From assembly GCF_000020025.1 (NCBI RefSeq), contig NC_010628.1, positions 7,440,001 through 7,472,000 of the forward strand: DNA of 32,000 bases. The letters are read 5' to 3'. The notes under the pieces were generated by a model. That model saw nothing but the letters and a program-made list of their open reading frames with translations, had not been told where the DNA came from and did no database searches. The stretch is from Nostoc punctiforme PCC 73102. GTDB taxonomy: Bacteria > Cyanobacteriota > Cyanobacteriia > Cyanobacteriales > Nostocaceae. This document shows positions 3,628 to 30,673 of the stretch, in pieces (within the stretch, counting starts at the first letter, position 1; every line of letters starts with the position of its first letter). A program made the translations under genes and the position numbers.

Positions 3628-4470
3628 CTACTTATTGCCGCACAGTAAGCCAAACCGAATTAACCCACGTTCATAACCGCGACGCATTAATCCCAGTGAT
3701 AATGCCCCTTGAATGGTAGTCCAACCAGCATTTAGTAAACCCCAAAGCGCTTGGGGAGTGAATGCAGAATCAATTACCACATTCCAAAAGGGGGCGACAG
3801 CAGTTGACCAATCAGCAGTGCGGATATTATGTAATGGTAGTTGATGTGCGATCGCTTCATACTCTGGCAAAGAAATCACATAAGGCAAACAATACACCCG
3901 ATAAATATCCTGCAAGTGCTTTTCCTCATCTGCCGTTAATGGAGATTCATCAGTTGGTCGATGACACCAAGTCACCATAATTAACTTGCCACCAGGCTTC
4001 AGTACTCGATAGCACTCCTGAAGAAACTTGGTTTTATCTGGCATGTGTTCGCCACTTTCCAGCGACCAAACCAAGTCAAAAGAATCGTCAGCAAAGGGCA
4101 TTGCTTGAGCATTAGCGACTTGGAACTGTGTTCTCAGACTCAAATTAGCTTCCAATGCGCGTTCTGTTGCTCTTGCAGCTTGTACAGGACTCAATGTAAT
4201 CCCTGTAGCTTTAGCATTAAACTTTTGCGCCAGGTATAAAGAACTACCGCCAATTCCACAACCCACATCTAGTATATCTTCTGCTGCTTGTACCCCTGCC
4301 CAATTAAGCAATTCTTCGATTAAATCAATTTGAGCCTGACGGCGGTCTTTTTTCTGGGTACCATCAGCGCCGTAATAGCCGTGGTGCATGTGTTCGCCCC
4401 ATATCTGTTCCCACAGACCAGATGAAGCATCGTAAAATTGCTGAATTTGCTGGTAAAGTGTTGCACTCAT
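3628..4470 (-). CDS. vte4: Gamma-tocopherol methyltransferase (SAM-dependent)
   Basis: SSGLWEQIWGEHMHHGYYG, DRRQAQIDLIEELL, SAM motif LDVGCGIGGSSLYLA, WSLESGEHMPDK and YCLPYVISLPEYEAIA are colinear with Synechocystis slr0089 / plant VTE4 as I recall them. Confidence 0.85.
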   Translation of the reverse strand: MSATLYQQIQQFYDASSGLWEQIWGEHMHHGYYGADGTQKKDRRQAQIDLIEELLNWAGVQAAEDILDVGCGIGGSSLYLAQKFNAKATGITLSPVQAARATERALEANLSLRTQFQVANAQAMPFADDSFDLVWSLESGEHMPDKTKFLQECYRVLKPGGKLIMVTWCHRPTDESPLTADEEKHLQDIYRVYCLPYVISLPEYEAIAHQLPLHNIRTADWSTAVAPFWNVVIDSAFTPQALWGLLNAGWTTIQGALSLGLMRRGYERGLIRFGLLCGNK

Positions 4471-4711
4471 GAAAAAAGTAGTATTGAGACGAAGTAAAAT
4501 TCAAAAAAACATACTGGTAGACTACCATGTATGTTTTTAATTAAATAAGGGTATTTTTGTTCTAAGAAAGCTAAACCGGAATTAATCCTCTTTAGAAAAA
4601 TTTCTCAGTTTTACCTGAACAAGCTGTTATTGCTCAAAATTATACCAACTATCCAAAAAATATACGATATCCAAGAGGTTTAAACCCAGGTTAAATCTAA
4701 CTTTCTTAACC

Positions 4712-4746
4712 ACGAATTACGAATTACGAATTACGAATTACGAATT
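4712..4746. repeat. Heptanucleotide tandem repeat, 5 x ACGAATT (same family as 16514-16538)
   Basis: Five perfect head-to-tail copies read directly from the sequence. The array ends 4 nt before the ktrB ATG at 4751. Confidence 0.95.
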
Positions 4747-4750
4747 AATT

Positions 4751-6085
4751 ATGACTGTTGCTCGGACAATTTGTTTGGGATTTTTGGCTGTCATTGCTGT
4801 TGGTGCTATCCTGTTGATGATGCCTTTTTCGACTAGCAATGGTACATGGAATAACCTGATTGTGGCACTATTCACCTCGACATCCGCAGTTTGTGTCACA
4901 GGTTTATCAGTAGTTGATCCTGGTACTTATTTTTCCTTTTGGGGCCAATTGTTTATTGCACTATTAGCTCAGATTGGCGGTTTGGGCTACATGACAACTA
5001 CCACATTTCTAATTTTGCTCATTGGTCGTAGGTTTGATATGCGGCAGAAAATAGCAATTCAACAAGCTTTAGACCGACCAGGGATGAGTGGTAGTGCCCA
5101 AGTTATCCGTTCAATTATTGCCACAACTTTAATTTTTGAAATTACAGGCACATTCTTACTTCTGCCTGCTTTCGTTCCTGAATATGGATGGAGTAAAGGG
5201 CTTTGGTTAGCCATTTTTCATAGTATCAACGCTTGGAATAATGCTGGTTTTAGTTTATTTAAAGATAACTTAATTGGCTATCAGTCATCTTTCTTAGTAG
5301 TCTTTACCATCACAATGTTAATTATCTTTGGGGGAATTGGCTATCAGGTAATTTTGGAAATGTACCTTTGGTTGCGCGATTGCCTTTTCAAAAAAAATCA
5401 TAACCAAATATTTTCTCTAGATTTTAAAGTTGCAACTAGCACAACTATTATATTGTTAGTAATAGGAGTAATTGCATTCTTTTGTATAGAGATTAGAAAC
5501 CCAGAAACATTTGGTTCTCTAAATTTTCGTGACCAGATATTACTAGCTTGGTTTCAATCAGTTACTCCTAGAACTGCTGGTTTTAATACCATCGATATTA
5601 GCAAAATGACTACCGCAGGTTTATTTATTACGATTGCGATGATGTTTATTGGTGCAAGTCCAGGTGGTACAGGAGGAGGCATGAAAACAACAACTCTTAG
5701 AGTCTTGACCAGTTGTACCAAGGCAATTCTTCAGGGAAAAGAAGAAGTTTTATTATACGATCGCAAAATAGCAATATCTTTAATTTTGAAAGCCGTAGGT
5801 GTGTTAGTGGGTTCAATAGCAACAGTAATTTTAGCTACTATCTTAATCAGCCTTACAGATCCAACTTTGGATTTTATTCAAATTTTGTTTGAAGTGGTAT
5901 CAGCCTTCGCCACTGTGGGGCTTTCAACAGGTATTACAGGAAGTATCTCTATAATAGCAAAGCTCATCCTCATTATAACTATGTACATTGGACGAGTAGG
6001 TGTTTTACTACTGATGTCCGCAGTACTAGGAGACCCCCGCCCCACCAGAATTCACTATCCTGAAGAAAATCTCCTCGTGGGATAG
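4751..6085 (+). CDS. ktrB: Potassium uptake protein, TrkH/KtrB family membrane subunit
   Basis: 444-aa polytopic protein with four pore-loop glycine motifs: QIGGLGYMTT, AWNNAGFSLF, TPRTAGFNTI and FATVGLSTGI. A ktrA-type gene follows it. Confidence 0.88.
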   Translation: MTVARTICLGFLAVIAVGAILLMMPFSTSNGTWNNLIVALFTSTSAVCVTGLSVVDPGTYFSFWGQLFIALLAQIGGLGYMTTTTFLILLIGRRFDMRQKIAIQQALDRPGMSGSAQVIRSIIATTLIFEITGTFLLLPAFVPEYGWSKGLWLAIFHSINAWNNAGFSLFKDNLIGYQSSFLVVFTITMLIIFGGIGYQVILEMYLWLRDCLFKKNHNQIFSLDFKVATSTTIILLVIGVIAFFCIEIRNPETFGSLNFRDQILLAWFQSVTPRTAGFNTIDISKMTTAGLFITIAMMFIGASPGGTGGGMKTTTLRVLTSCTKAILQGKEEVLLYDRKIAISLILKAVGVLVGSIATVILATILISLTDPTLDFIQILFEVVSAFATVGLSTGITGSISIIAKLILIITMYIGRVGVLLLMSAVLGDPRPTRIHYPEENLLVG

Positions 6086-6250
6086 TTAAGGAGTGGGAAG
6101 TGAGGAGATAATAATTTCTTGACAACTCACTAATGACTAATGACTAAACTGATAAAATATACATTGGAAGGCAAAGAATAAGATTTTTAATTCAAGTATT
6201 ATAACCGTTTTTTGCCCTAAATACAGGGAGCCATTATAAGGATAAAAAGG

Positions 6251-6946
6251 GTGAATCTTTCATCATTAAGTTTTTTTCGCAGTTTACGTAAAGATAACCA
6301 ACAATTTGCTGTGGTTGGGTTAGGTCGTTTTGGTAGATCGGTCTGTTCTACACTGCATAACTTCGGTTATCAAGTGCTGGCAACAGATATTGATGAAAAA
6401 CGAGTTTCAGAAGCATTAACTGAGGGAATAGTTGGTCATGCTTTGCAATTAGATTCTACAGAACCAGCCGCACTAAAGGAAGCTGGAATTTTTGAATTTG
6501 ATACTGTAATCGTAGCGATTGGCAACTACGTTCAAGAAAGCATTATAACCACCCTAAATGTGAAAGAGGCTGGCGTACCTCATGTAGTCGCCAAAGCTTC
6601 TAGCGAAGTTCACCGTAAACTATTACGGCGAGTAGGAGCAGATCATGTTGTTTTTCCTGAATATGAAGCAGGTTGCGCTCTAGCGCGTACACTTACTAAA
6701 CCAGCAATCTTAGATCGATTTGATCTAGACCCAGATAACAGTATTGTAGAGTTGATTGTGCCTGATGAATTTCACGGTAGAACAATCACCGAGCTTCAAC
6801 TTCGTAACCGCTACGGTTTAAATTTGCTAGCGGTGAGTCAGGATGGTAAATTTCAAATTAATCCCGATCCTACCAAGCGTTTAGAACGTGGTTCCGCAAT
6901 GGTAGTTATTGGCTGCAATAAAGATATCAATCGTTTGCCGATTTAA
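6251..6946 (+). CDS. ktrA: Potassium uptake protein, KtrA/TrkA RCK-domain subunit
   Basis: GTG start. Rossmann motif VVGLGRFGRSV (TrkA-N) plus a C-terminal TrkA-C-like region (ITELQLRNRYGLNLLAV...VVIG), directly downstream of ktrB. Confidence 0.85.
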   Translation: MNLSSLSFFRSLRKDNQQFAVVGLGRFGRSVCSTLHNFGYQVLATDIDEKRVSEALTEGIVGHALQLDSTEPAALKEAGIFEFDTVIVAIGNYVQESIITTLNVKEAGVPHVVAKASSEVHRKLLRRVGADHVVFPEYEAGCALARTLTKPAILDRFDLDPDNSIVELIVPDEFHGRTITELQLRNRYGLNLLAVSQDGKFQINPDPTKRLERGSAMVVIGCNKDINRLPI

Positions 6947-7086
6947 AAAATTTAGAAGTCATTCAATTTGAGATTTTAGATTTTTCCTTAAATCCAAGTT
7001 GCGCTGTAAGCACACCAAAAGTGCTACTTAAAATCTAAAATTGGCAGAGTTAGAAGTTATTAATTTATTTCTAACTCCGAGTTTGT

Positions 7087-8232
7087 TTATTGTCCGGAAG
7101 TCGTTGAAGTAGATTGTGGTTCAACTGAGACAGGGTTTTCTAGTTGATTTGGCGTTTGTGGCTCAGGTGTTTGTACTACATTACTTGTTTTGTCTGGAGT
7201 CTGAGAGGGAGTAGTTGTTTGACTGGCTTGAGGCTGCTGTTGACCACTTTTTTGAGCAATTTGCTGCATTAGCTGTTCAATTTTTTCAGCTTGCTCAATG
7301 TTCCCTTGCTCACGATACTCAGTATGGGCACGTTTCAAGACTCCATTAGCTTTCTTGATGTCGCCTTGATTATATAAAGTGACTCCCAAATTATAGTAAG
7401 CTGAGGCGTTTTTAGGATTTAAGCGAATAGCTTGCCGATAAACAGAAATAGCCTCAGAAGCTTGGCCTTGAATTGCTAGCAAATTTGCCATGTTGTTATA
7501 AGCTGTGGCATTTTGAGGATCTAGCTGCAAGGCTTGACGATAAGTTGCGATCGCCTGCTCTGTTTGACCTTGTTGTTGCAAGGCGATCGCTAAGTTAAAA
7601 TAAGCATTGGCATTGCTGCTATCTAAATTAATTGCTTGCTGGTATACTGCGATCGCTTCCGGTAGCTGTTCTTGTTCATACAGCACCAAACCCAGATTAT
7701 ACAGCGCTGCTACCTTTGTGGGATCTATCACAAGGCTTTGACGATAAGCCGTAATCGCGGCATCTTTTTGTCCCTGACGATGCAGCACTAACCCTAAGTT
7801 GTAATAAGCTTCACTAAAATTAGGATTAATCCTAATCGCCTCTGTATATTCTTGTAAAGCTACATCTAGGCGATTTTGTTCCATGAATATATTACCCAGA
7901 TAATTTAGCGCAGCCCCAAGGCTAGGATCTCGCTGCAACGCCTGACGAAAGGCATATTCTGCACCCTGTAAGTCTTTGCGGTTATAGCGCGTGACTCCCT
8001 GCTGGAAAAAGCTAGCTGCTTCAAGATCCTGAGAAATTGCGGTTTCTGCTAGCAGCTTGCTTCCTGGAAAATTAGTAATCGCCGGTGCAGCTATGACCAA
8101 AAACGCAGAGAACGCAAATAGAAGTCTGAACAGGGGCTTTTTCTGAACAGAGTTTTGGTGAAATAAGGAGTGTAACCACGGCTGAGTTTGACTTTTTCTA
8201 GACAGGAGTGACATAGATGTACTTATGCTCAT
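7087..8232 (-). CDS. TPR-repeat protein with an N-terminal hydrophobic anchor/signal and a Q/P/T-rich C-terminal tail
   Basis: About 8 consecutive 34-aa TPR units (e.g. AYYNLGLVLHRQGQKDAAITAYRQSLVIDP). The hydrophobic segment is LLFAFSAFLVIAAPAI. The track ORF begins at a GTG (8259); the ATG at 8232 is chosen here, so the start is uncertain. Confidence 0.8.
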   Translation of the reverse strand: MSISTSMSLLSRKSQTQPWLHSLFHQNSVQKKPLFRLLFAFSAFLVIAAPAITNFPGSKLLAETAISQDLEAASFFQQGVTRYNRKDLQGAEYAFRQALQRDPSLGAALNYLGNIFMEQNRLDVALQEYTEAIRINPNFSEAYYNLGLVLHRQGQKDAAITAYRQSLVIDPTKVAALYNLGLVLYEQEQLPEAIAVYQQAINLDSSNANAYFNLAIALQQQGQTEQAIATYRQALQLDPQNATAYNNMANLLAIQGQASEAISVYRQAIRLNPKNASAYYNLGVTLYNQGDIKKANGVLKRAHTEYREQGNIEQAEKIEQLMQQIAQKSGQQQPQASQTTTPSQTPDKTSNVVQTPEPQTPNQLENPVSVEPQSTSTTSGQ

Positions 8233-19524: not shown

Positions 19525-19941
19525 TTACGACTTAGGAGACAGTTCAAAAGCCATCTGCGAACGATAAAAACAGACATCGAATTCCACAAAAAAATTCATG
19601 CGTCCTAGAAGTAACGGCACATTATCAGTAACACTCCAAGCAAATACCAAGCGAACTGGTGCAAAACTGGCTATTTGAGCAGATAAAATTAACCCTTTTG
19701 CTTCAACTGGTGCTAGATTTCCAGCTAGTTGCACTGAGGTTGTTAGTTCTTCCCATACCGCCCCTAACTGAATACCTACACTGTAAGGTAAAACATTAAT
19801 GCTAGCTCCAGTATCTAATAGACCCGAAACGTTAACAACGGAATTTTTGTAGCTTAACGTTAAAGGTAATATTGGTACTGCATCGATATCTCCAAACACA
19901 TCACGACTTTCAACGAAGAGAAATCTTTGTGAATTAAGCAT
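19525..19941 (-). CDS. Retropepsin-like (single-domain) aspartic protease
   Basis: Active-site LLDTGAS (Asp codon 19813-19815) and a later LLGRMNFF motif in a 138-aa protein. This size fits a homodimeric retropepsin fold. Confidence 0.75.
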   Translation of the reverse strand: MLNSQRFLFVESRDVFGDIDAVPILPLTLSYKNSVVNVSGLLDTGASINVLPYSVGIQLGAVWEELTTSVQLAGNLAPVEAKGLILSAQIASFAPVRLVFAWSVTDNVPLLLGRMNFFVEFDVCFYRSQMAFELSPKS

Positions 19942-20152
19942 CGTTTACCTGTTTGTCTTGTTCTAGCAGTGCAGCTAGTTTATTAGCAGCTTCATGAGAA
20001 TTATAGGGAGACCACACATGATAAGTGACTCCTGGCTGTAACGATAATGCTTCTTCTTCAGTTGCTAGTTCTTGAACTAAAAACTGCATGACCTTGAGTT
20101 TATCTGCACGAGATAGCTTGTGCAAGGTTGGGAATAAATCTGCTGCGCTCAT
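19934..20152 (-). CDS. Small acidic helical protein (72 aa), translationally coupled to the protease gene
   Basis: ATG start. Its stop overlaps the downstream ATG in the sequence ATGCTTAA (19941-19934). The N-terminus LSRADKLKVMQFLVQELA resembles small addiction-module/antitoxin-type helices (weak, from memory). Confidence 0.6.
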   Translation of the reverse strand: MSAADLFPTLHKLSRADKLKVMQFLVQELATEEEALSLQPGVTYHVWSPYNSHEAANKLAALLEQDKQVNDA

Positions 20153-20526
20153 ATCAAGTTGAAGATCGCGACTAAATACTTTTTATATTTTTACAACTAC
20201 TATAAGGTGATTACAAAGTTTGTGGCGTAGGCGTAGCCTTCCGCAGGCATCACTATTGGTCAATTCTCAAATAAAGACAAAGCGATCGCCCTTTTTGCTC
20301 GATAGTTCGTGTAAAAAGGTGCAAGGTTAGAGTTCAGAGGTGTAATGATGATGCTTTGAGGTCGAGCATAGACACGTAGGAACCTGCTATGTCTATGACG
20401 AGCTACGCTAACGCACATTGCGCTGATGCAATCCTTGATACAGGGTACATTATTAATTAGCTTAATTTCTCTGCTGCGCGTCCAAGCAGCAACTCGTCGT
20501 CAGGCATAGCCTTTGTAAAACCCAAA

Positions 20527-23500
20527 ATGACTAACGAAGAACTGCTGCAAATTATTGAACAAGCTGTCAAAGACGAGGTAACAGAATTAGACCTTTCTTA
20601 CAAAGGGTTAACAATACTGCCACCGGAAATTGGCCAACTCACCAACCTGCAAACTCTCCACCTCGACAGTAATCAACTGAGCAGTCTGCCACCGAAAATT
20701 GGCCAACTCACCAACCTGCAAACTCTCCACCTCCGCAGTAATCAACTGAGCAGTCTGCCACCGGAAATTGGCCAACTCACCAACCTGCAAACTCTCCACC
20801 TCGGCAATAATCAACTGAGCAGTCTGCCACCGGAAATTGGCCAACTCACCAACCTGCAATCCCTCCACCTCTGGATTAATCAACTGAGCAGTCTGCCACC
20901 GGAAATTGGCCAACTCACCAACCTGCAATCCCTCGACCTCGACAGTAATCAACTGAGCAGTCTGCCACCGGAATTTGGCCAACTCACCAACCTGCAATCC
21001 CTCGACCTTGGCAGTAATCAACTGAGCAGTCTGCCACCGGAAATTGGCCAACTCACCAAGCTGCAATCCCTCGACCTCAGCAGGAATCAACTGAGCAGTC
21101 TGCCACCGGAAATTGTCCAACTCACCAAGCTGCAATCCCTCGACCTCCGCAGTAATCAACTGAGCAGTCTGCCACCGGAATTTGGCCAACTCACCAAGCT
21201 GCAATCCCTCGACCTTGGCAGTAATCAACTGAGCAGTCTGCCACCGGAAATTGTCCAACTCACCAAGCTGCAATCCCTCGACCTTGGCAGTAATCAACTG
21301 AGCAGTCTGCCACCGGAAATTGTCCAACTCACCAACCTGCAATCCCTCGACCTCAGCAGTAATCAACTGAGCAGTCTGCCACCGGAAATTGTCCAACTCA
21401 CCAAGCTGCAATCCCTCTACCTCAGCAGTAATCAACTGAGCAGTCTGCCACCGGAAATTGTCCAACTCACCAAGCTGCAATCCCTCGACCTTGGCAGTAA
21501 TCAACTGAGCAGTCTGCCACCGGAAATTGTCCAACTCACCAAGCTGCAATCCCTCGACCTTGGCAGTAATCAACTGAGCAGTCTGCCACCGGAAATTGTC
21601 CAACTCACCAACCTGCAATCCCTCGACCTCAGCAGTAATCAACTGAGCAGTCTGCCACCGGAAATTGTCCAACTCACCAAGCTGCAATCCCTCTACCTCA
21701 GCAGTAATCAACTGAGCAGTCTGCCACCGGAAATTGTCCAACTCACCAAGCTGCAATCCCTCGACCTTGGCAGTAATCAACTGAGCAGTCTGCCAAGGGA
21801 AATCAGGCAACTGTCAAACCTGAAAAAGCTGGATCTTCGTAGAAATCCAGTCCCGATTCCACCAGAGATTTTAGGGCCGAAGGCTGACTACCAAGATCCG
21901 GGTGATGTGAATGAAATTCTTGATTTCTATTTTCGGGTGCAAGACCCAGCCGAAACCGAACCTTTCTATGAAGCAAAATTCTTAATTATTGGCGAAGGAG
22001 GAGCCGGTAAAACCTCTTTAGCCAAGAAAATCAAAGACGAAACCTATAAACTCCAGCCAGAAGAAAAATCAACCCAAGGCATTGAGGTGATCCGGTGGGA
22101 CTTTACACAGTCCAATGGCAAAGATTTTCGCGTCAACATCTGGGATTTTGGCGGTCAGGAAATTTACCATCAAACTCATCAGTTTTTCCTCAGCAAGCGT
22201 TCTCTATATGCCTTAGTTGCTGACACTCGCAAAGAAAACACTGATTTTTACTGGTGGCTGAAAGTTGTCGAACTCTTGAGCGACAAGAGTCCAGTTATCA
22301 TCATCAAAAACGAAAAACAAGACCGTGATTGCCAAGTCAATGAGCGCCAGTTACGAGGAGAATTCAGCAATCTGGAGAAAATACTAGCAACCAATTTAGA
22401 TACTAATCGCGATTTAGCAAAGATTAAAGAGGCGATTCAGCTATACATCAGCAGACTTGACCATGTTGGTATACCTCTACCAAAACTTTGGGTAAGAGTC
22501 AGAGCCGCCCTAGAGAACAATTCCCAAAATTACATTAGCCGTGAAAAATACCGTGACCTTTGCCAAATAAATAATTTAACAGACCCTGAAGACATGGAGC
22601 GCTTGAGCCGCTATCTCCACGACCTCGGCGTTTGCCTCCACTTTCAAGACGATTCTACACTCAAACACTACGTCATCCTCAAACCGGAATGGGCGACAAC
22701 TGCTGTTTACAAAGTTTTGGATAATCAAACTGTCAAGGAAAAGCTAGGTTGTTTTACCAAAAATGACCTCAAAAATATTTGGAAAAGCGGCGAATATGCA
22801 GATATGCAAGATGAACTCCTGCAATTAATGATGCAGTTCAAGCTTTGCTACGAAATTCCAGGTAATCGGGAAAATTATATTGCACCTCACCTACTTTCGA
22901 CCAATCAGCCTGATTTCAATTGGGATGAATCTAACAATCTGATCCTGCGCTACACCTATGACTTCATGCCCAAAGGCATTCTTACCCGCTTTATTGTCGA
23001 AATGCACGCTCATATTGAACAACAAACCCTTGTTTGGAAAACAGGTGTTGTTCTCAATAAAGACCAAACTCGTGCCGAAGTCATTGAACAATATAATCAA
23101 CGAGAAATTAAAGTCCGCGTAGAAGGAAACCGCAAGAAAGAACTGTTGGCAATTATCACTCATGAACTAGATAAAATCCATAATTCTTACGAAAACCTAA
23201 AATATCAAACACTTGTTCCCTGCAATTGTGAAAGCTGTAAAGATAGTCAAACGCCTTATTTTTACCGTCGAGACGTGTTGTATAAATTCCGGGACAATAA
23301 TCGCTACCAAATCCAGTGCCAGGATAGCGGTGATATGGTAGATGTCCGCAGACTGATTGACGATGTTTTAGCAACTCCACCAAATTTAGAAATAGCCATG
23401 TCTGAACCCGTAACCAGAGATCAAGTTTTCATTAGCTATAGTCACAAAGATAAAAAGTGGTTCAATGACCTCAAAACTAATCTAGAACCATTAATTAGAG

Positions 23501-23856
23501 AACAAAATCTCAAACTGTGGGATGATACCCAAATCAAGCCTGGTGCTGTGTGGCGAGATGAAATCCAGGCGGCTTTGGCAACTGCAAAAGTAGCAGTGTT
23601 GCTGGTAAGTCCAAACTTCCTCGCATCAAAGTTTATTAGTCAAAATGAGTTACCACCTCTGTTAGAAGCAGCGAAAGCCGAAGGAGTCAAAATCCTTTGG
23701 ATACCTTTGCGTGCTAGCAACTACAAAGCAACAGCAATTGAAAAATATCAAGCAGCACACCCTACCGATAGCCCATTAAACACCATTATGGGAGGAAAAC
23801 GAGATCAAGCTTGGGTAAATATCTGCAACGAAATCAATACAGCAGCCTTTCGGTAA
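20527..23856 (+). CDS. ROCO-family protein with a C-terminal TIR domain (LRR x18 - Roc GTPase - COR - TIR)
   Basis: Single 1109-codon ORF with 23-aa LRRs from aa 32 to 445. Roc features: P-loop GEGGAGKTS (nt 21991-22014) and DFGGQE (22144-22158). A COR-like region ends in the cysteine cluster CNCESC. TIR signature: VFISYSHKD...VLLVSPNFLASKFISQNELPPLL. Confidence 0.9.
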   Translation: MTNEELLQIIEQAVKDEVTELDLSYKGLTILPPEIGQLTNLQTLHLDSNQLSSLPPKIGQLTNLQTLHLRSNQLSSLPPEIGQLTNLQTLHLGNNQLSSLPPEIGQLTNLQSLHLWINQLSSLPPEIGQLTNLQSLDLDSNQLSSLPPEFGQLTNLQSLDLGSNQLSSLPPEIGQLTKLQSLDLSRNQLSSLPPEIVQLTKLQSLDLRSNQLSSLPPEFGQLTKLQSLDLGSNQLSSLPPEIVQLTKLQSLDLGSNQLSSLPPEIVQLTNLQSLDLSSNQLSSLPPEIVQLTKLQSLYLSSNQLSSLPPEIVQLTKLQSLDLGSNQLSSLPPEIVQLTKLQSLDLGSNQLSSLPPEIVQLTNLQSLDLSSNQLSSLPPEIVQLTKLQSLYLSSNQLSSLPPEIVQLTKLQSLDLGSNQLSSLPREIRQLSNLKKLDLRRNPVPIPPEILGPKADYQDPGDVNEILDFYFRVQDPAETEPFYEAKFLIIGEGGAGKTSLAKKIKDETYKLQPEEKSTQGIEVIRWDFTQSNGKDFRVNIWDFGGQEIYHQTHQFFLSKRSLYALVADTRKENTDFYWWLKVVELLSDKSPVIIIKNEKQDRDCQVNERQLRGEFSNLEKILATNLDTNRDLAKIKEAIQLYISRLDHVGIPLPKLWVRVRAALENNSQNYISREKYRDLCQINNLTDPEDMERLSRYLHDLGVCLHFQDDSTLKHYVILKPEWATTAVYKVLDNQTVKEKLGCFTKNDLKNIWKSGEYADMQDELLQLMMQFKLCYEIPGNRENYIAPHLLSTNQPDFNWDESNNLILRYTYDFMPKGILTRFIVEMHAHIEQQTLVWKTGVVLNKDQTRAEVIEQYNQREIKVRVEGNRKKELLAIITHELDKIHNSYENLKYQTLVPCNCESCKDSQTPYFYRRDVLYKFRDNNRYQIQCQDSGDMVDVRRLIDDVLATPPNLEIAMSEPVTRDQVFISYSHKDKKWFNDLKTNLEPLIREQNLKLWDDTQIKPGAVWRDEIQAALATAKVAVLLVSPNFLASKFISQNELPPLLEAAKAEGVKILWIPLRASNYKATAIEKYQAAHPTDSPLNTIMGGKRDQAWVNICNEINTAAFR
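20620..21861 (+). repeat. 69-bp tandem repeat array encoding the LRRs: 17 near-identical units plus 1 degenerate unit
   Basis: Units begin at 20620+69k with CCACCGGAAAT.... Units 10-13 (21241-21516) and 14-17 (21517-21792) are identical by eye. The last unit (21793-21861) is diverged. Confidence 0.95.
21964..22480 (+). other. Roc (Ras of complex proteins) GTPase domain of the ROCO protein
   Basis: G1 GEGGAGKT (K495), G3 DFGGQ (D540) and an atypical G4-like stretch IIIKNEKQD. The domain borders are approximate. Confidence 0.75.
23422..23853 (+). other. TIR domain of the ROCO protein
   Basis: aa 966-1109: (Q)VFISYSHKDKKW, AVLLVSPNFLASKFISQNEL (Glu1041, codon 23647-23649) and KILWIPL. The pattern parallels the plant/bacterial TIR motif F.SY...D ... 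S..Y..S.WC..EL. Confidence 0.8.
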
Positions 23857-23990: not shown

Positions 23991-24232
23991 AGTGTTTTGG
24001 TCTCTAAAATTACAGCTAGGCACTTTTCAAACAACCTCTCAGCTAGGCTGAAAATGTTAATTCGATGAAATTCACATTGCATGTAAAATCACAGGTTAAA
24101 GTTTTGTTCTTTTGCCAAAAGTGGTATATTGGCACTTGATCCGACCGAGTACAAACTATGTATAAGCCCGCAGACCAGAGAAGTCGAGGTGTTGTACTCA
24201 CTACTATTAGGACAGGAAGGGAGAGTGGGCTT

Positions 24233-26893
24233 ATGAACAAAAATATTGGTCAAAATGGTGTTTTTCCCCTATTTAAAGGTGTACCTCTACGTCGCATTCT
24301 CGTAGCGTTGTTTGTGCTGCAAATCTTCCTAGCTGTGGGTTTGACTGCATACTTATCAATCCGCAATGGGCAAAAGGCTGTCAATGAGGTAGCTAGCGAA
24401 TTGCGTTATGAAGTCGCTAATCGAGTAGAGCAAAATTTACAGGCTTACCTTTCAACCCCGCGTCAAGTACTGCGCGGTAATCAAAATATCATTGACATTG
24501 GGTTGCTGAAGATGGAAAATTTGGCAACTTGGGAGTCATACTTAATCAAGCAGTTAGAGATTTTTCCTGATGCTGTCGCTTTAACGGCAAGCAATGAACA
24601 GCAAGAACATTTAGCGGTGGAAAAGCTCAACGATCGCCAATATTTACTCAGAAAAGCCGATAAGTCAACTGGTTACGACCTCTACACCTACAAAATTGAC
24701 CGTCAAGGTCAACGTACCCAGCTACCAGAGGTAATCAAAAACTATGATGCGCGATCGCGTCCTAACTATCAAGCAGCAGTTACCGCTAAAAAATTCAGCT
24801 TTAGTCAAATTTTTACACCCATCACCAAACCAACGCTGCTAATTAGTGCTTCTCAACCTATATATAACTCCCAAGGTGAGTTACTCGGTGTCAACAGCAC
24901 CCTAACTCATGTATCACAAATTGGGGATTTGCTGCAAAATATTAAAGTTGGCAAGTCTGGACAAGTTTTTATTATCGAGCGATCGGGGCTATTAGTGGCA
25001 AGTTCCACAACCGAAGAACCATTCCGCCTCCAAAATGGTAAACCGATTAGGTTGGCAGCTTCCCAAAGCGGGAATGCTTTTACTCAAGCCAGCGCTAAAT
25101 ATTTAGAAACTAAATTTAGTAACTTTGACCAAATTCAGAGTTTACAGCAACTAGATTTCTCTTTTGACGGCAAACGACAATTTTTAGAAATTAGACCGTT
25201 ACAGGGCGAACCAAATGTCAACTGGTTGATTGTAGTAGCTGTCCCAGAAGCAGATTTTATGGGGCAAATCGATCGCAACACTCAAACTACAATTTTTCTC
25301 TGTCTGGGAGCGTTGGGATTAGCTACTTTACTAGGAATTATCACCGCCCGTTGGATAACTCAGCCAATTTTGTACTTCAGCACAGCGACAAAAGATTTAG
25401 CTGATTTCACCAAAGGAGAAGACTCAGTGGTGATTGTACCAGGCATTAAAGAAGTAGAAATACTGGGTGAATCTTTCAACGAGATGATGCAGCATTTACG
25501 TAAAACCTTTACTGCACAGATTACTAAAAATGAAGAGTTAGAATTGCAAGTTAAACAGCGAACTCAAGAATTACAGCAAGAGATTCAAAAAAGTATTAAC
25601 AGTGAGCAAAAGCTAGAAAAGCATAATCGGGCGTTGGCAGAACTGGCAAATCATAGAACAATTTCAGAAGGAAATCTGGAAACAGCATTCAAAGTTATTA
25701 CCGAGAAAGCCGCAAATGCTTTAGAAGTAGAACGAGTAAGTGTGTGGTTATTTAATAGTGATGCTGACGGCAGGCTGCGCCAACGCACTAAGCTACAATG
25801 TATAAGTCTCTATGAACGTAGCAATCAAAAACATTCGGCAGGTTTAGAACGCGATCGCGCAGATTATCCCATCTACTTTAAATCCCTGACATCTGCCCGC
25901 ATCATCGCTGTCACCGATACTCGCACCGATCTACGGATACAAGAATTATGGGATGAATTGCTAGAAACAAAGAATATTGTATCCCTAATTAATACCTCCA
26001 TTTGGGTTGGGGGCGAAGTCGTGGGAACAATATTGTCTGAACAGATTGATATTCCTCGGACATGGGAAGTGAGCGAGCAAAACTTCGTTAGCTCAATAGC
26101 TGAATTTGTTGCTCTGACTTTAGAAGTCTGCGATCGCAAAAGTGCAGAATCCGCTCTGCGTGAGGCGAAAGAAGCTGCTGAAGTTGCAAATCGTGCCAAA
26201 AAAACCTTTTTGGTAAATATGAGTCATGAATTGAGGACTCCCTTAAGCTCCATTCTTGAAATTGCAGAAGCACTCCAAAATGAAGTGTACGGTACTGTAA
26301 CCGAAGAACAGCGCCAGTTTCTAAATACCCTCGAATCGAGCGGTAAGAACTTACTAGAATTGATTAACCAAATCCTTGAGCTTACAGATATTGAATCCAG
26401 CAAGATAGAACTGCAACTAGCGGCTACTTTTATTCCAGAATTATGTGATTCTAGTCTCAGTTTCGTCAAAAATTTAGCGTTACAGAAAAATATCCAACTG
26501 AGTGTACAAATCCCTGAAGAACTCGAACCCATCCAAGTTGATGAGCGCCGCATCCGCCAGGTATTTATCAACCTGTTGAGCAACGCTATCAAGTTTACTC
26601 ACGACGGAGGCAAAGTTTGGATTGAAGTTCAGCCAAATTCCACAAATGAATATATCTTTTTTAGCGTGGTAGATACAGGTATTGGTATGCTTTCCGATGA
26701 CCTTTTCCGATTATTTCAACCTTTTATCCAAGTTGAAAATGCCTCTACCCGTCGTTCCGCAGGTACGGGTTTAGGATTGGTGATGGTACAAAAAATCGTC
26801 GAGTTGCATGGTGGTACTGTCCACGCTGAAAGTCAGTTAGGCAAAGGTAGTCGATTTACAGTCAAACTACCGTGGAAAAAGGTTGGAGAGTAG
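24233..26893 (+). CDS. Sensor histidine kinase (TM - Cache-like periplasmic domain - TM - HAMP - coiled coil - GAF - HisKA - HATPase)
   Basis: H-box MSHELRTPLSS (His codon 26225-26227), N-box NLLSNAIKFT, G1 DTGIGM and G2 GTGLGL. Two TM segments flank a roughly 330-aa extracytoplasmic region. The ATG at 24233 follows GGAAGGGAGAG; an upstream ATG at 24158 is also possible. Confidence 0.88.
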   Translation: MNKNIGQNGVFPLFKGVPLRRILVALFVLQIFLAVGLTAYLSIRNGQKAVNEVASELRYEVANRVEQNLQAYLSTPRQVLRGNQNIIDIGLLKMENLATWESYLIKQLEIFPDAVALTASNEQQEHLAVEKLNDRQYLLRKADKSTGYDLYTYKIDRQGQRTQLPEVIKNYDARSRPNYQAAVTAKKFSFSQIFTPITKPTLLISASQPIYNSQGELLGVNSTLTHVSQIGDLLQNIKVGKSGQVFIIERSGLLVASSTTEEPFRLQNGKPIRLAASQSGNAFTQASAKYLETKFSNFDQIQSLQQLDFSFDGKRQFLEIRPLQGEPNVNWLIVVAVPEADFMGQIDRNTQTTIFLCLGALGLATLLGIITARWITQPILYFSTATKDLADFTKGEDSVVIVPGIKEVEILGESFNEMMQHLRKTFTAQITKNEELELQVKQRTQELQQEIQKSINSEQKLEKHNRALAELANHRTISEGNLETAFKVITEKAANALEVERVSVWLFNSDADGRLRQRTKLQCISLYERSNQKHSAGLERDRADYPIYFKSLTSARIIAVTDTRTDLRIQELWDELLETKNIVSLINTSIWVGGEVVGTILSEQIDIPRTWEVSEQNFVSSIAEFVALTLEVCDRKSAESALREAKEAAEVANRAKKTFLVNMSHELRTPLSSILEIAEALQNEVYGTVTEEQRQFLNTLESSGKNLLELINQILELTDIESSKIELQLAATFIPELCDSSLSFVKNLALQKNIQLSVQIPEELEPIQVDERRIRQVFINLLSNAIKFTHDGGKVWIEVQPNSTNEYIFFSVVDTGIGMLSDDLFRLFQPFIQVENASTRRSAGTGLGLVMVQKIVELHGGTVHAESQLGKGSRFTVKLPWKKVGE

Positions 26894-28621: not shown

Positions 28622-28906
28622 ATCTTTGATATACACTGTGATTAGGTGATGCTGATTCCTGTTATTTTGTCACAGACTAAGAACAAATTTTGCCTCTGAT
28701 TTTTTTAGAACTAGCCCTTTCAATGTGTAAAAAACAGCAGATTCCGCAAGGTTGCAGGTGTGGCTATGCTATTGGAGTGAGAAATACTTTGCAGCACAAA
28801 ATCAAAATAGTCCTTACTAGGACAGCTTGGGATTTAAGTGAGATGCAGACACAAGAGAAAATAAAGGCAGTTTAAACGTAAGCTAAAAATAAAATACTTG
28901 GGTGCT

Positions 28907-30673
28907 ATGTCGATTCCAGGAATTTCTGAAGCAATAATCCGTCATAACTCCAACGCTTCATCCTACAGTCGTGGTGAAGAATATTACCGCAGGGGTGCGA
29001 TCGCCGAGCTCAAAAAACGAGGTAATCTGATTCAGGCAGAGATAGAGGGTAGCGAAATTACACCATATCAAGTCAGTATTCGTTTTGATGCAGGTGGAAT
29101 TACCTCAGCTTGTTGTACCTGTCCTTATGATTATGATGGTTGGTGCAAACATATCGTTGCTACCTTATTAAGCTGTTCGCGTCAATCAGAGATCATTGAA
29201 GAACGTCCAACACTAGAACAATTATTAAATCGCCTCGATCTTCTTCAAACTCAGCGATTACTGCAAGAACTGGTGGAAAATAGACCAGAAATAATTGATG
29301 ATATTGATGAGTTTGTAAGTTTGATAGACTTGCCAAAACCAAAAACTAAACAGTCTTCTACCCGTCAAAGCAAAATTGACACATCACCTTTTCGCTCTCA
29401 TGTCAAGCGGATTTTGCGGGATGGATTGAAAGAATTAGAGTATGGTTCAGAAGAAGACCCATTTACAGATGATTTACTGGCTGTAATTGAGAAAGTGCGA
29501 GAGTTAGCAGAAAATGGAGATGGGAATAATGCGATCGCAATTCTCGAAACTATTACCGAAACTTATGCCCAAGAATGGGACGAGTTGCTAGATTACGGTG
29601 GAGACAGTTATTCCATCGCAGAACCTCTTGACAGCGCCTGGACAGAAGCAATTTTGTGTGCAGAAATGTCTACAGGAGAAATACTAGATTTGCAGTTGAT
29701 GTTGGAATCATGGCAAGACGAAATCAGTGCAGACTTTAGTATGAGTTTAGAAGCATTGCGTCAAGGTTGGGATTATGAACCACTGCAACAAATTATGCAA
29801 GGAGATGATACCGCAGAACTTTGGGAAAATGAACGACCAAGCTTTGCTGATGATTTAGCATTGATTCGCTTGCAAATTCTTGAACGTCAAAATCGTTATA
29901 CAGAGTATTTAAATCTAGCTTTAGCAGAAGAAATGACTCTGCAATACCTGACGCAATTAGCAGCTTTGGGAAGAGTAGAAGAAGCCATGTCTGCGGCTAA
30001 AATCCTGATGGAAAAAGCAGAAGAGGGTTTTGCCTTAGCAAAAATATTGCGGGAAGATGGGTATTTGGTTGAAGCGTTAGAAATATGCCAAGCTGGTATC
30101 AATTTAACAGGTAACTGTTTATATGAATTTGCTAGTTGGACAAGTGATTTAGCCCAAGGATTAGAAGATAATGCTACTGCCTTAACTGCCAGTATCATTG
30201 CTTTTAAAATCAGACCATCGTTTCGAGACTATGGTAAGATTCAAGACTATGCAGGAGAAACTTGGTTGACGGTCAAACAAGATTTACTGCAAACACTACG
30301 AGATCAGCCAGATTGGGGAATAAAAGAAGCTCAAGTTGATATTTTCCTCCATGAAGGATTAATTGATGATGCAATTAAAACAGTAGAAAGAGATAGTTAC
30401 TATGCTTCAGAACTAGTTCATCGAGTCATGGATGCAGCAGTTTCCCATCGTCCAAAGTGGGTAATTGATAACGCTCGCAGACGGGCAGAACCAATAATGG
30501 AACAAGGAAAAGCTGACCGTTATGACGCTGCGGTTAATTGGCTCAAAAAAGTAAAAACTGCGTATCTTCAACTAGGACAAAAAGCTGAATGGTCTGCTTA
30601 TCGCTCACAACTAGAAGCGGCTCATGGACGTAAACGTAAATTAATGGAATTATTTAAAGAACTGAATAAATAG
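28907..30673 (+). CDS. SWIM zinc-finger protein with a long helical C-terminal region
   Basis: CxCx(n)CxH motif ACCTCPYDYDGWCKHIVATLL near the N-terminus, in a 588-aa protein counted from the ATG at 28907 (the track uses the TTG at 28898). Confidence 0.85.
   Translation: MSIPGISEAIIRHNSNASSYSRGEEYYRRGAIAELKKRGNLIQAEIEGSEITPYQVSIRFDAGGITSACCTCPYDYDGWCKHIVATLLSCSRQSEIIEERPTLEQLLNRLDLLQTQRLLQELVENRPEIIDDIDEFVSLIDLPKPKTKQSSTRQSKIDTSPFRSHVKRILRDGLKELEYGSEEDPFTDDLLAVIEKVRELAENGDGNNAIAILETITETYAQEWDELLDYGGDSYSIAEPLDSAWTEAILCAEMSTGEILDLQLMLESWQDEISADFSMSLEALRQGWDYEPLQQIMQGDDTAELWENERPSFADDLALIRLQILERQNRYTEYLNLALAEEMTLQYLTQLAALGRVEEAMSAAKILMEKAEEGFALAKILREDGYLVEALEICQAGINLTGNCLYEFASWTSDLAQGLEDNATALTASIIAFKIRPSFRDYGKIQDYAGETWLTVKQDLLQTLRDQPDWGIKEAQVDIFLHEGLIDDAIKTVERDSYYASELVHRVMDAAVSHRPKWVIDNARRRAEPIMEQGKADRYDAAVNWLKKVKTAYLQLGQKAEWSAYRSQLEAAHGRKRKLMELFKELNK

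Follow-up and report, generated by a model that had tools for sequence, protein, structure and literature searches.

A Nostoc punctiforme protein joining leucine-rich repeats, a Roc-COR switch and a TIR domain is a candidate NLR-like conflict receptor

Domain architecture of the protein

We analyzed a 32,000-nucleotide stretch of Nostoc punctiforme PCC 73102 DNA (contig NC_010628.1, 8.23 Mb; the whole stretch is called the window below) and focused on a single gene whose 1109-residue product joins a leucine-rich repeat (LRR) sensor, an LRRK2-type Roc-COR switch and a TIR domain. We propose that the protein acts as a cytoplasmic single-chain conflict receptor resembling the nucleotide-binding LRR receptors (NLRs), in which a Ras-like Roc-COR GTPase replaces the STAND ATPase and a TIR NADase kills the infected cell; we give this proposal an even chance of being right. 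The initial annotation of the gene had read it as a candidate immune sensor with sensor, switch and effector parts. Swapping of effectors, a hypervariable concave LRR surface and mosaic alleles favored this logic, each of them indirectly, whereas the check for defence islands did not. An immune-sensor role is plausible.

The list of open reading frames (ORFs) confirmed one uninterrupted frame of 1109 codons, as first annotated (Table 1). The first in-frame stop upstream was at position 20458, and the N-terminus MTNEELLQIIEQA was kept among homologues. The translated product matched ACC84329.1, WP_012412270.1 and UniProt B2IUT6 of N. punctiforme exactly; it is annotated as 'COR domain-containing protein [Nostoc punctiforme]'. 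Pfam domains lay contiguously in the order LRR_8, Roc, COR-A, COR-B and TIR_2, with all E-values far beyond chance. The full-length AlphaFold model (51 homologues) had a mean predicted local distance difference test score (pLDDT) of 83.5 and a predicted template modelling score (pTM) of 0.59. Its elements were 19 LRR strands, a G domain, COR-A (helical), COR-B (mixed), disorder over residues 950–961 and a C-terminal (beta-alpha)5 fold. When this model was compared with the PDB by Foldseek, the top match was the crystal structure of LRR-Roc-COR from Chlorobium tepidum Roco (CtRoco; 6hlu, E 2e-43); LRRK1 and LRRK2 came next. Pfam, the PDB sequence matches and AlphaFold/Foldseek therefore concurred with the LRR, Roc, COR and TIR assignments made earlier. 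The motif positions given with those assignments were all correct as well (GEGGAGKTS at 489 with K495, DFGGQE at 540, KNEKQD at 594, CNCESC at 899, and E1041).

The Roc-COR switch

Roc is directly followed by COR, and both G1 and G3 are intact; the protein is thus a ROCO protein. Among PDB sequences, its Roc-COR portion matched Methanosarcina barkeri Roco2 (MbRoco2) best (4wnr, 2e-57), then CtRoco (3dpu, 6hlu and 8r4b, ~1e-52) and LRRK2 (~1e-22). The phosphate-binding half of the Roc site was canonical, and the base-binding half was a conserved variant. The G4 motif had been called atypical from the outset, and NEKQ indeed aligned with NKID of MbRoco2, but this proved to be a hallmark of the clade and not a peculiarity of this protein. 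Residues N595, E596 and K597 were invariant, Q598 was found in 102 of 106 homologues, and the residue after it was D, E or N. Moreover, most of the nearest 150 cluster representatives carried the NEK form of G4 regardless of their C-terminal domain. The G5 motif 'SCK' of MbRoco2 aligned to N623-L624-D625 (22393–22401), of which N623 was invariant.

The G4 variant may be NKxD in which one residue bulges out (N-e-K-x-D), or it may signal a preference for another base. Because G4 is non-canonical, the nucleotide specificity of Roc may differ from that of textbook GTPases. The canonical NKxD form, which is missing here, does not define the family, so ROCO membership stands.

In the alignments, the K557-R558 pair fell on 'TRS' of CtRoco, which contains the arginine, and on 'SKRS' of MbRoco2, where the motif is identical. 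Mutation of the catalytic arginine abolished GTPase activity in CtRoco and MbRoco2 (PMC6337361), and from the alignment we infer that R558 is the equivalent residue. COR-B, which is the dimerization half of COR in CtRoco (PMC6337361), contained a cysteine cluster in which C899, C901 and C931 were invariant and C904 was at least 90% conserved. The CxCxxC pattern was present in 142 of 150 clade representatives, most of them with a fourth cysteine 31–33 residues past the first. This cluster is probably a structural Cys4 metal site. The CtRoco alignment stops at C899, and hence the cluster was not seen in CtRoco.

The TIR domain and its linker

The AlphaFold model of residues 940–1109 (pLDDT 80, pTM 0.76) was a (beta-alpha)5 fold with five strands alternating with helices. 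Of its top 25 Foldseek matches, 19 were described as 'TIR' and five others contain a TIR domain (RPP1, TLR5, SPARTA TIR-APAZ and full-length SARM1). The fold matches included RPP1, L6, TLR10, TLR1, SARM1, AbTIR, SPARTA, MyD88, TIR-SAVED and ThsB, with TM-scores of 0.4–0.56. Among PADLOC models, those that matched did so in the TIR part (residues 948–1107); ThsB1 was the best match (2.6e-16, whole domain), followed by SAVED-TIR, Aga-TIR and other TIR effectors.

In phmmer alignments, FLASKFISQNEL was matched to 'FVKKNW-TEYEL' (7uxr), 'FFKKEW-PQKEL' (PdTIR, 3h16) and 'YAASSWC-LDEL' (AtTIR, 3jrn). E1041 lies in 'SQNEL' at the start of helix alpha-C and was at least 90% conserved among 51 full-length homologues. 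We take its position to be that of the catalytic glutamate established in work on SARM1, AbTIR and plant TIRs. The F-I-S-Y-S box-1 motif was also conserved across homologues, and a second TIR type found in the family (see below) retained the glutamate in 'CMFEL'. The domain thus has both the fold and the catalytic-position glutamate of the NADase-competent subclass, and catalysis is predicted. The low-confidence linker between COR-B and TIR coincided with a recombination breakpoint among orthologues.

A Hymenobacter plasmid encodes a stand-alone TIR protein with 43% identity to the TIR domain described here. Its gene adjoins those of a DNA methyltransferase, a DEAD helicase, an AAA ATPase and a PDDEXK nuclease.

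Variation in the LRR array

The repeat region gave an LRR_8 Pfam match with an E-value of 6e-100. The N-x-L-x-x-L-P core occurred 18 times at an exact spacing of 23 residues, in agreement with the 18 repeats of the initial annotation, and 19 units in register were listed for residues 22–458. AlphaFold likewise placed 19 strands between residues 20 and 436 (pLDDT above 90), preceded by a cap helix at residues 3–16. Foldseek matches of this part were SHOC2 and Leptospira LRR proteins.

At the DNA level the repeats form a tandem array with higher G+C content and strongly negative GC skew. Units 10–13 and units 14–17 are identical blocks of 276 bp; this is, as judged from their DNA, a recent segmental duplication. 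Two orthologues were 1017 and 971 residues long, that is, shorter than the 1109 residues seen here by 92 residues (four units) and 138 residues (six units); orthologue P0003 was exactly 92 residues shorter. Because the differences are exactly four and six units, the array appears to expand and contract in whole units.

We also measured entropy at each position of the repeat in 671 units from 107 homologues, a sample in which some of the less variable positions were fixed by the search pattern. The most variable positions were 3 (3.17 bits), 4 (2.70), 12 (2.36), 1 (2.19) and 22 (2.18), and most others had ~0–1.7 bits. Four of these five positions are x residues of the xxLxLxx segment, which forms the concave ligand-binding face. 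Within the gene itself, units 2–17 varied at 13 of 69 nucleotides, and only one variable site was purely synonymous. The proportion of nonsynonymous differences (pN) was 0.176 in concave codons versus 0.035 elsewhere, and the pooled ratio to synonymous differences (pN/pS) was 1.56, a crude statistic since pairs of units are not independent.

An antisense ORF of 400 codons (20608..21810) was rejected as an artefact of the repeats, which are free of stop codons when read in that frame. Gene calls in some genomes split the LRRs and the Roc-COR-TIR portion into separate ORFs. For example, Nostoc sp. C117 (locus L042) had a 514-aa ORF at 4346–5887 followed at 6037–7896 by a 619-aa COR-TIR protein (P0066), and locus L019 was similarly split. 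Four ORFs in the census of flanking genes described below consisted of LRRs only. Such cases reflect either frameshifts in the array together with errors of assembly, or the existence of copies that are split or decayed.

Mosaicism at the syntenic locus

Nostoc sp. FACHB-133, N. punctiforme UO1 and Nostoc sp. C110 carried the gene at the same locus, between a FAD monooxygenase gene and a Cache-GAF histidine kinase gene. We compared positions 21832–23856 of the window with the corresponding loci (L001 10001–12916, L002 10001–13054 and L003 10001–12961). Flanking genes of the three genomes were 93–98% identical to the window in DNA, whereas swapped modules were 46–85% identical. Relative to FACHB-133, DNA identity was 97–100% in Roc/COR-A, fell to 73–85% in COR-B, and was 93–98% in TIR. 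UO1 was 94–100% identical through COR-B and 60–77% identical in TIR. C110 showed a third pattern, with 46–82% in Roc/COR-A including the linker, ~85% in COR-B and 95–99% in TIR. The shifts were sharp and occurred near residue 796 (COR-A/COR-B) and residue 950 (COR-B/TIR). Because identity jumped module by module and Roc and TIR types were paired in mixed combinations, we concluded that alleles and paralogues have exchanged segments through recombination or gene conversion.

Distribution and effector swapping

Searches with Roc-COR returned 12,411 cluster representatives (50% identity) at E <= 1e-3 and 4,007 at E <= 1e-30. All 120 of the closest database proteins had Roc, COR and TIR Pfam domains, and most had N-terminal LRRs; their named sources included Nostoc, Brasilonema, Scytonema, Dendronalium, Aliinostoc, Lyngbya and Phormidesmis. 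Scanning a collection of species-representative genomes gave 325 related stretches. The best 80 were cyanobacterial without exception, and almost every one came from a named genus or family of filamentous cyanobacteria; at least 16 genomes were represented among them by two loci each. The PCC 73102 genome was not among the best 80 loci of that collection, and its own paralogues fall outside this count.

The region after COR-B varied greatly among relatives. C-terminal tails of at least 60 residues were present in 136 of the 150 nearest representatives and fell into ~48 sequence clusters. TIR domains of the type studied here made up a cluster of 21 members, and the second TIR type had 13. Other larger clusters were EAD7, CHAT, TCAD2, metallophosphatase, AAA_21/ABC-type ATPase, PNP_UDP_1 phosphorylase, Schlafen-AlbA_2, NACHT with an inactive REase, and tails that had no annotation or were hydrophobic and may span the membrane. 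About 25 of 106 close homologues combined a Roc domain ~90% identical to this one with the unrelated second TIR type. Such swapping at the effector position of Roc-COR relatives is typical of conflict systems.

Paralogues with other C-termini were found on plasmids in Nostoc sp. ATCC 53789, Calothrix, Pseudanabaena and Acaryochloris. On plasmid pNsp_j of Nostoc sp. ATCC 53789 (locus L008, 5985–10592), the paralogue was a 1535-aa LRR-ROCO protein with a Roc-COR 74% identical to that of the window. It lay between PIN toxin-antitoxin genes and a tyrosine recombinase/integrase, near EAD1 and vWA proteins of the 'ternary conflict system' type.

Genomic neighborhood

In the window, the surroundings of the gene have a housekeeping character, with genes for QueA, CTP synthase, arginase, an amidase, a pair of Trk potassium-uptake proteins, a FAD monooxygenase, a Cache-GAF histidine kinase and a SWIM protein. 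A scan for promoters and terminators around the gene found nothing on the + strand above shuffled expectation. The Cache-HAMP-GAF histidine kinase gene (24158–26893, +) begins 300 bp downstream, and such a gene was the commonest ROCO-TIR neighbor in Nostoc (7–11 of 25 loci). We considered it as an operon partner and rejected it; adjacency was lost in Brasilonema, Lyngbya and Nostoc CENA543, and the arrangement is more probably synteny than a functional link.

Immediately upstream is a divergent gene pair, 19934..20152 (−, 72 aa) and 19525..19941 (−, 138 aa), overlapping by 8 nt. The two matched the PADLOC candidate system PDC-M52, as PDC-M52A (1.3e-10) and PDC-M52B (2.5e-57, full length), and the 138-aa protein had weak similarity to retropepsin-like aspartyl proteases. 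The pair was missing at the same position in the three syntenic Nostoc genomes, and we therefore concluded that it was inserted beside the gene in this strain. Insertion of PDC-M52AB, itself a candidate system, next to the gene is a point for a conflict role. The only other PADLOC match nearby in the window was partial: a 591-aa SWIM zinc-finger protein (28898–30673, +) whose N-terminal 115 residues matched candidate PDC-S62 (7.7e-24). In syntenic genomes the SWIM gene is followed by one for a 1403-aa SNF2-family helicase.

We extended the analysis to 25 loci with full-length ROCO-TIR genes, taking the two ORFs closest to the gene on either side (99 ORFs, PADLOC E <= 1e-8). The most frequent domains were HATPase_c with HisKA (11), GAF (9), dCache (7) and FAD_binding_3 (5); GH65, phycobilisome linker, pseudouridine synthase and arginase were further common neighbors.

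Table 1. Features of the ROCO-TIR gene, in window coordinates
Feature	Position	Strand	Evidence
LRR-Roc-COR-TIR gene, complete, 1109 aa	20527..23856	+	ORF list; exact protein match
LRR domain, aa 22-458, 19 units x 23 aa	20590..21900	+	Pfam LRR_8/LRR_4/LRR_14, register listing, AlphaFold
69-bp tandem repeat array, 17.2 copies, 95% matches	20617..21803	+	Tandem Repeats Finder
LRR units 10-13 (aa 229-320), first copy of identical 4-unit 276-bp block	21211..21486	+	DNA rows identical
LRR units 14-17 (aa 321-412), second copy of 276-bp block	21487..21762	+	DNA rows identical
Roc G domain, aa 484-642	21976..22452	+	Pfam Roc 6e-25 (aa 484-596), Ras 3e-9; PDB matches
G1/P-loop GEGGAGKTS (K495, T496)	21991..22017	+	G489, G494, K495, T496 invariant in 106 homologues
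G3/switch II DFGGQE (D540, Q544)	22144..22161	+	D540, F541, G543, Q544 invariant in 106 homologues
R558 in 'FFLSKRSLY', candidate dimer-dependent catalytic arginine	22198..22200	+	Invariant in family
Non-canonical G4 K-N-E-K-Q-D in place of NKxD	22306..22323	+	Aligns with 'LNKIDE' of MbRoco2
COR-A, aa 652-790	22480..22896	+	Pfam PF16095, E 1e-51, full-length match
COR-B, aa 803-946	22933..23364	+	Pfam PF25497, E 8e-51, full-length match
Cys cluster C899-x-C901-x-x-C904 ... C931 in COR-B	23221..23319	+	Conservation in homologues
Low-confidence linker, aa 950-961, COR-B to TIR	23374..23409	+	pLDDT <50 in both models
TIR domain, aa 966-1109	23422..23853	+	Pfam TIR_2 4e-14 (aa 967-1065), TIR 2e-5
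E1041, position of catalytic glutamate of TIR NADases	23647..23649	+	phmmer alignments, conservation

Proposed mechanism

We propose the following model for the NLR-like receptor. At rest the protein would be closed, its horseshoe of LRRs folded back against Roc-COR in the manner of nucleotide-free CtRoco, and the TIR domain would be held unpaired on its flexible linker of ~12 residues. A ligand derived from an invader, most likely a phage protein or assembly, would bind the variable concave face of the LRRs. Ligand binding together with GTP loading would then open the LRR-Roc hinge, and opened protomers would associate through COR-B/Roc contacts or on a multimeric ligand. The TIR domains could thereby reach head-to-tail contact and complete an NADase site around E1041. 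Cleavage of NAD+ would cause the infected cell to stop growing or die, protecting the rest of the filament, and GTP hydrolysis (Q544, R558) would reset the switch.

Several results weigh against this model. The initial annotation had proposed to check whether homologues are enriched near defence genes, and our census gave a negative answer: only ~4 of the 99 flanking ORFs matched PADLOC (PDC-S17 twice, PDC-S70 once, and one TIR; a raw count without a background rate), neighbors were mostly housekeeping genes, and no defence-island signal was seen. A conserved partner gene was sought at ~31 loci, and none was found beyond close Nostoc relatives. In Nostoc the gene keeps its syntenic position stably, which sets it apart from typical mobile defence genes. 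No PADLOC model matched the whole protein, only the TIR portion, and a search of a phage genome collection found no homologue. With regard to the protein itself, this allele has LRR units that hardly differ from each other and present a rather uniform surface, the base-recognition motifs deviate (NEKQ at G4, N-L-D at G5) so that GTP binding is a prediction, and the TIR domain resembles proven NADases weakly (E ~1e-3, 15–22% identity), with low-confidence stretches in its model at residues 1005–1007, 1034–1036 and 1067–1070. TIR NADase catalysis requires self-association. In CtRoco, by comparison, GTP opens the LRR-Roc hinge and favors the monomer (PMC11052575). By this analogy the requirement for TIR contact may conflict with a GTP-bound monomer, which leaves the polarity of the switch ambiguous. 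Lastly, our literature searches found no experiment on any bacterial ROCO-TIR protein or on a defence role of a Roco protein, in agreement with the statement in the initial annotation that no experimentally characterized ROCO-TIR defence protein is known.

Alternative explanations

The lack of a defence-island signal would suit a different role, in which the protein regulates cell death or stress responses within the filament (such as necridium formation, the release of hormogonia or nutrient stress) and recognizes a self ligand. Its stable chromosomal position amid housekeeping genes, beside a Cache-GAF histidine kinase in many Nostoc genomes, fits such a role, as does confinement of the family to filamentous, multicellular cyanobacteria in the best 80 of 325 stretches. 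An endogenous regulator would be expected to be conserved, however, and we saw instead a hypervariable LRR face, changing repeat number, mosaics of COR-B and TIR, and many alternative effectors; the adjacency to the histidine kinase was also lost outside Nostoc. We therefore consider a self-regulator unlikely. It is similarly improbable that the TIR domain produces a signal, such as a cyclic ADP-ribose (ADPR) isomer or similar nucleotide, that switches on an effector whose gene lies elsewhere in the genome, as in ThsB and plant TIRs. The whole-domain match to ThsB1 and the presence of ThsB and the TIRs of plant TIR-NLRs (TNLs) among the Foldseek matches agree with signal production. No ThsA-like or other conserved partner adjoined the gene at the ~31 loci, though, and a terminal effector is favored by the directly toxic modules that sister proteins carry in this position, such as CHAT, PNP, metallophosphatase and transmembrane tails.

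If the TIR domain were a non-catalytic assembly or adaptor module, the protein would be a GTP-regulated scaffold without NAD+ chemistry. Many TIR domains do mediate protein-protein contacts only, and the similarity to proven NADases is low, as noted above. Conservation of the catalytic-position glutamate and box 1, including the glutamate kept by the second TIR type, makes this explanation very unlikely, and a TIR-containing neighbor with which a scaffold might pair was found in just 1 of 99 flanking ORFs. We also considered an exported LRR effector aimed at a eukaryotic host, in the manner of LRR type III effectors or bacterial TIR virulence factors, since N. punctiforme is a plant symbiont. 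The top NCBIfam matches were the LRR parts of XopAC, XopAE, XopL and internalins. These matches covered generic LRRs only and fell far below curated cut-offs; the GTPase core is cytosolic, no Pfam secretion domain was recognizable, and many homologues come from lineages without a named host association, while many of the Nostoc entries belong to lichen or plant cyanobionts. We rejected the secreted-effector reading on the sub-threshold, generic matches and regard it as extremely improbable.

The NLR-like conflict receptor can also be elaborated in a bolder form. Its base-recognition motifs were rewritten and then frozen, with the NEK form at G4 and N-L-D in place of S-A/C-K at G5, and Roc may no longer be a plain GTPase; it may bind ATP or a nucleotide altered by infection and so serve as a second sensor that gates the TIR suicide enzyme; in addition, recombination of cassettes at a fixed locus may generate an allelic series of receptors, much as in plant NLRs. 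We think it quite improbable that this elaborated version holds.

Significance

What bacterial Roco proteins do physiologically is still unsettled, and with it the original function of the Roc-COR switch, which carries mutations in LRRK2 Parkinson's disease. A TIR output gives this switch an easily measured read-out, namely loss of NAD+ or formation of ADPR-type products. Such a read-out would let the nucleotide of the on-state, activation as dimer or monomer, and the LRR ligand be tested, and the mosaic alleles and unit-wise LRR changes offer natural specificity variants for these experiments. Should the protein prove to protect filaments through the death of infected cells, it would be the first GTPase-based counterpart of NLR immunity to gain experimental support in bacteria, and it would add a defence system for cyanobacteria, which current catalogues cover poorly.

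Comparison with known systems

The initial annotation implied more novelty than the literature allows. Kaur, Iyer, Burroughs and Aravind (eLife 2021, PMC8195603, section 15 and Fig. 6D) described LRR-AP-GTPase(Roc)-COR proteins with TIR or other effectors as predicted counter-invader systems, with rapidly evolving N-terminal LRRs, several paralogues per genome and enrichment in multicellular bacteria, and a 2020 paper by the same authors placed AP-GTPase-COR in cyanobacterial conflict systems. The layout in the 2021 paper is identical to ours, with TIR explicitly listed and a variable C-terminal effector slot, and the ~48 tail clusters, variable LRRs, paralogues and filamentous bias found here reproduce its features. 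Theirs was a computational survey, and its passages on these systems do not single out this gene. The protein therefore belongs to a class that had been predicted before; it is not new in category and would not surprise specialists in the genomics of conflict systems. As far as our searches show, what is new is the mosaicism of the locus, the duplication and turnover of LRR units, the NEK form of G4 with the other base-motif variants, the COR-B cysteine cluster, and the negative defence-island census. Literature searches found no paper naming this protein or its accessions; a TIR survey paper did not discuss this architecture, and a 2019 review from the LRRK2 field described prokaryotic Rocos as LRR-RocCOR only (PMC6337361).

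Among characterized proteins, CtRoco (6hlu, 3dpu, 8r4b) and MbRoco2 (4wnr) are the closest, with the same LRR-Roc-COR order, the best sequence and fold matches, and the DFGGQE and 'HQFF..(K)RS' motifs in common. Alignments to them end within COR, no TIR-type output is described for them in our sources, and their G4 is the canonical NKID versus NEKQ here. Among eukaryotic ROCO proteins, human LRRK2, LRRK1, DAPK1 and MASL1 have the same Roc-COR tandem and an enzymatic output C-terminal to COR, at ~20% identity, but that output is a kinase and not TIR, and ARM, ANK and WD40 domains are added. Thoeris ThsB, TIR-SAVED, SPARTA and AbTIR have a similar TIR fold, and the PADLOC matches included ThsB1, SAVED-TIR and Aga-TIR. 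In contrast to those systems, the TIR domain here is fused to its own LRR-GTPase sensor and has no ThsA, SAVED, Argonaute or cyclase partner; in particular, a ThsA-like neighbor was absent at every locus examined.

Plant TNLs (RPP1, ROQ1, L6) and STAND receptors (Avs, bNACHT) have the same sensor-switch-effector logic in one chain. The likeness to TNLs extends to the TIR domains of RPP1 and L6, which are top fold matches, and to LRR variation on the xxLxLxx face. The differences are a Ras-like GTPase in place of a STAND/AAA+ ATPase, a reversed order with LRRs at the N-terminus and TIR at the C-terminus, and assembly that would be expected to proceed through COR and not through a STAND ring. 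Because it has no NB-ARC or NACHT ATPase, the protein may act in an NLR-like manner but is not a member of that family. Lastly, LRR-ROC-COR proteins of brown algae are candidate immune receptors whose LRRs are shuffled and under diversifying selection (PMC3341825, PMC11378527), and a TPR-ROCO-TIR protein was reported in the red alga Chondrus crispus (PMC11378527). The algal ROCOs are eukaryotic and vary through one exon per LRR and alternative splicing, whereas variation in Nostoc arises from tandem-repeat duplication and from recombination among alleles and paralogues.

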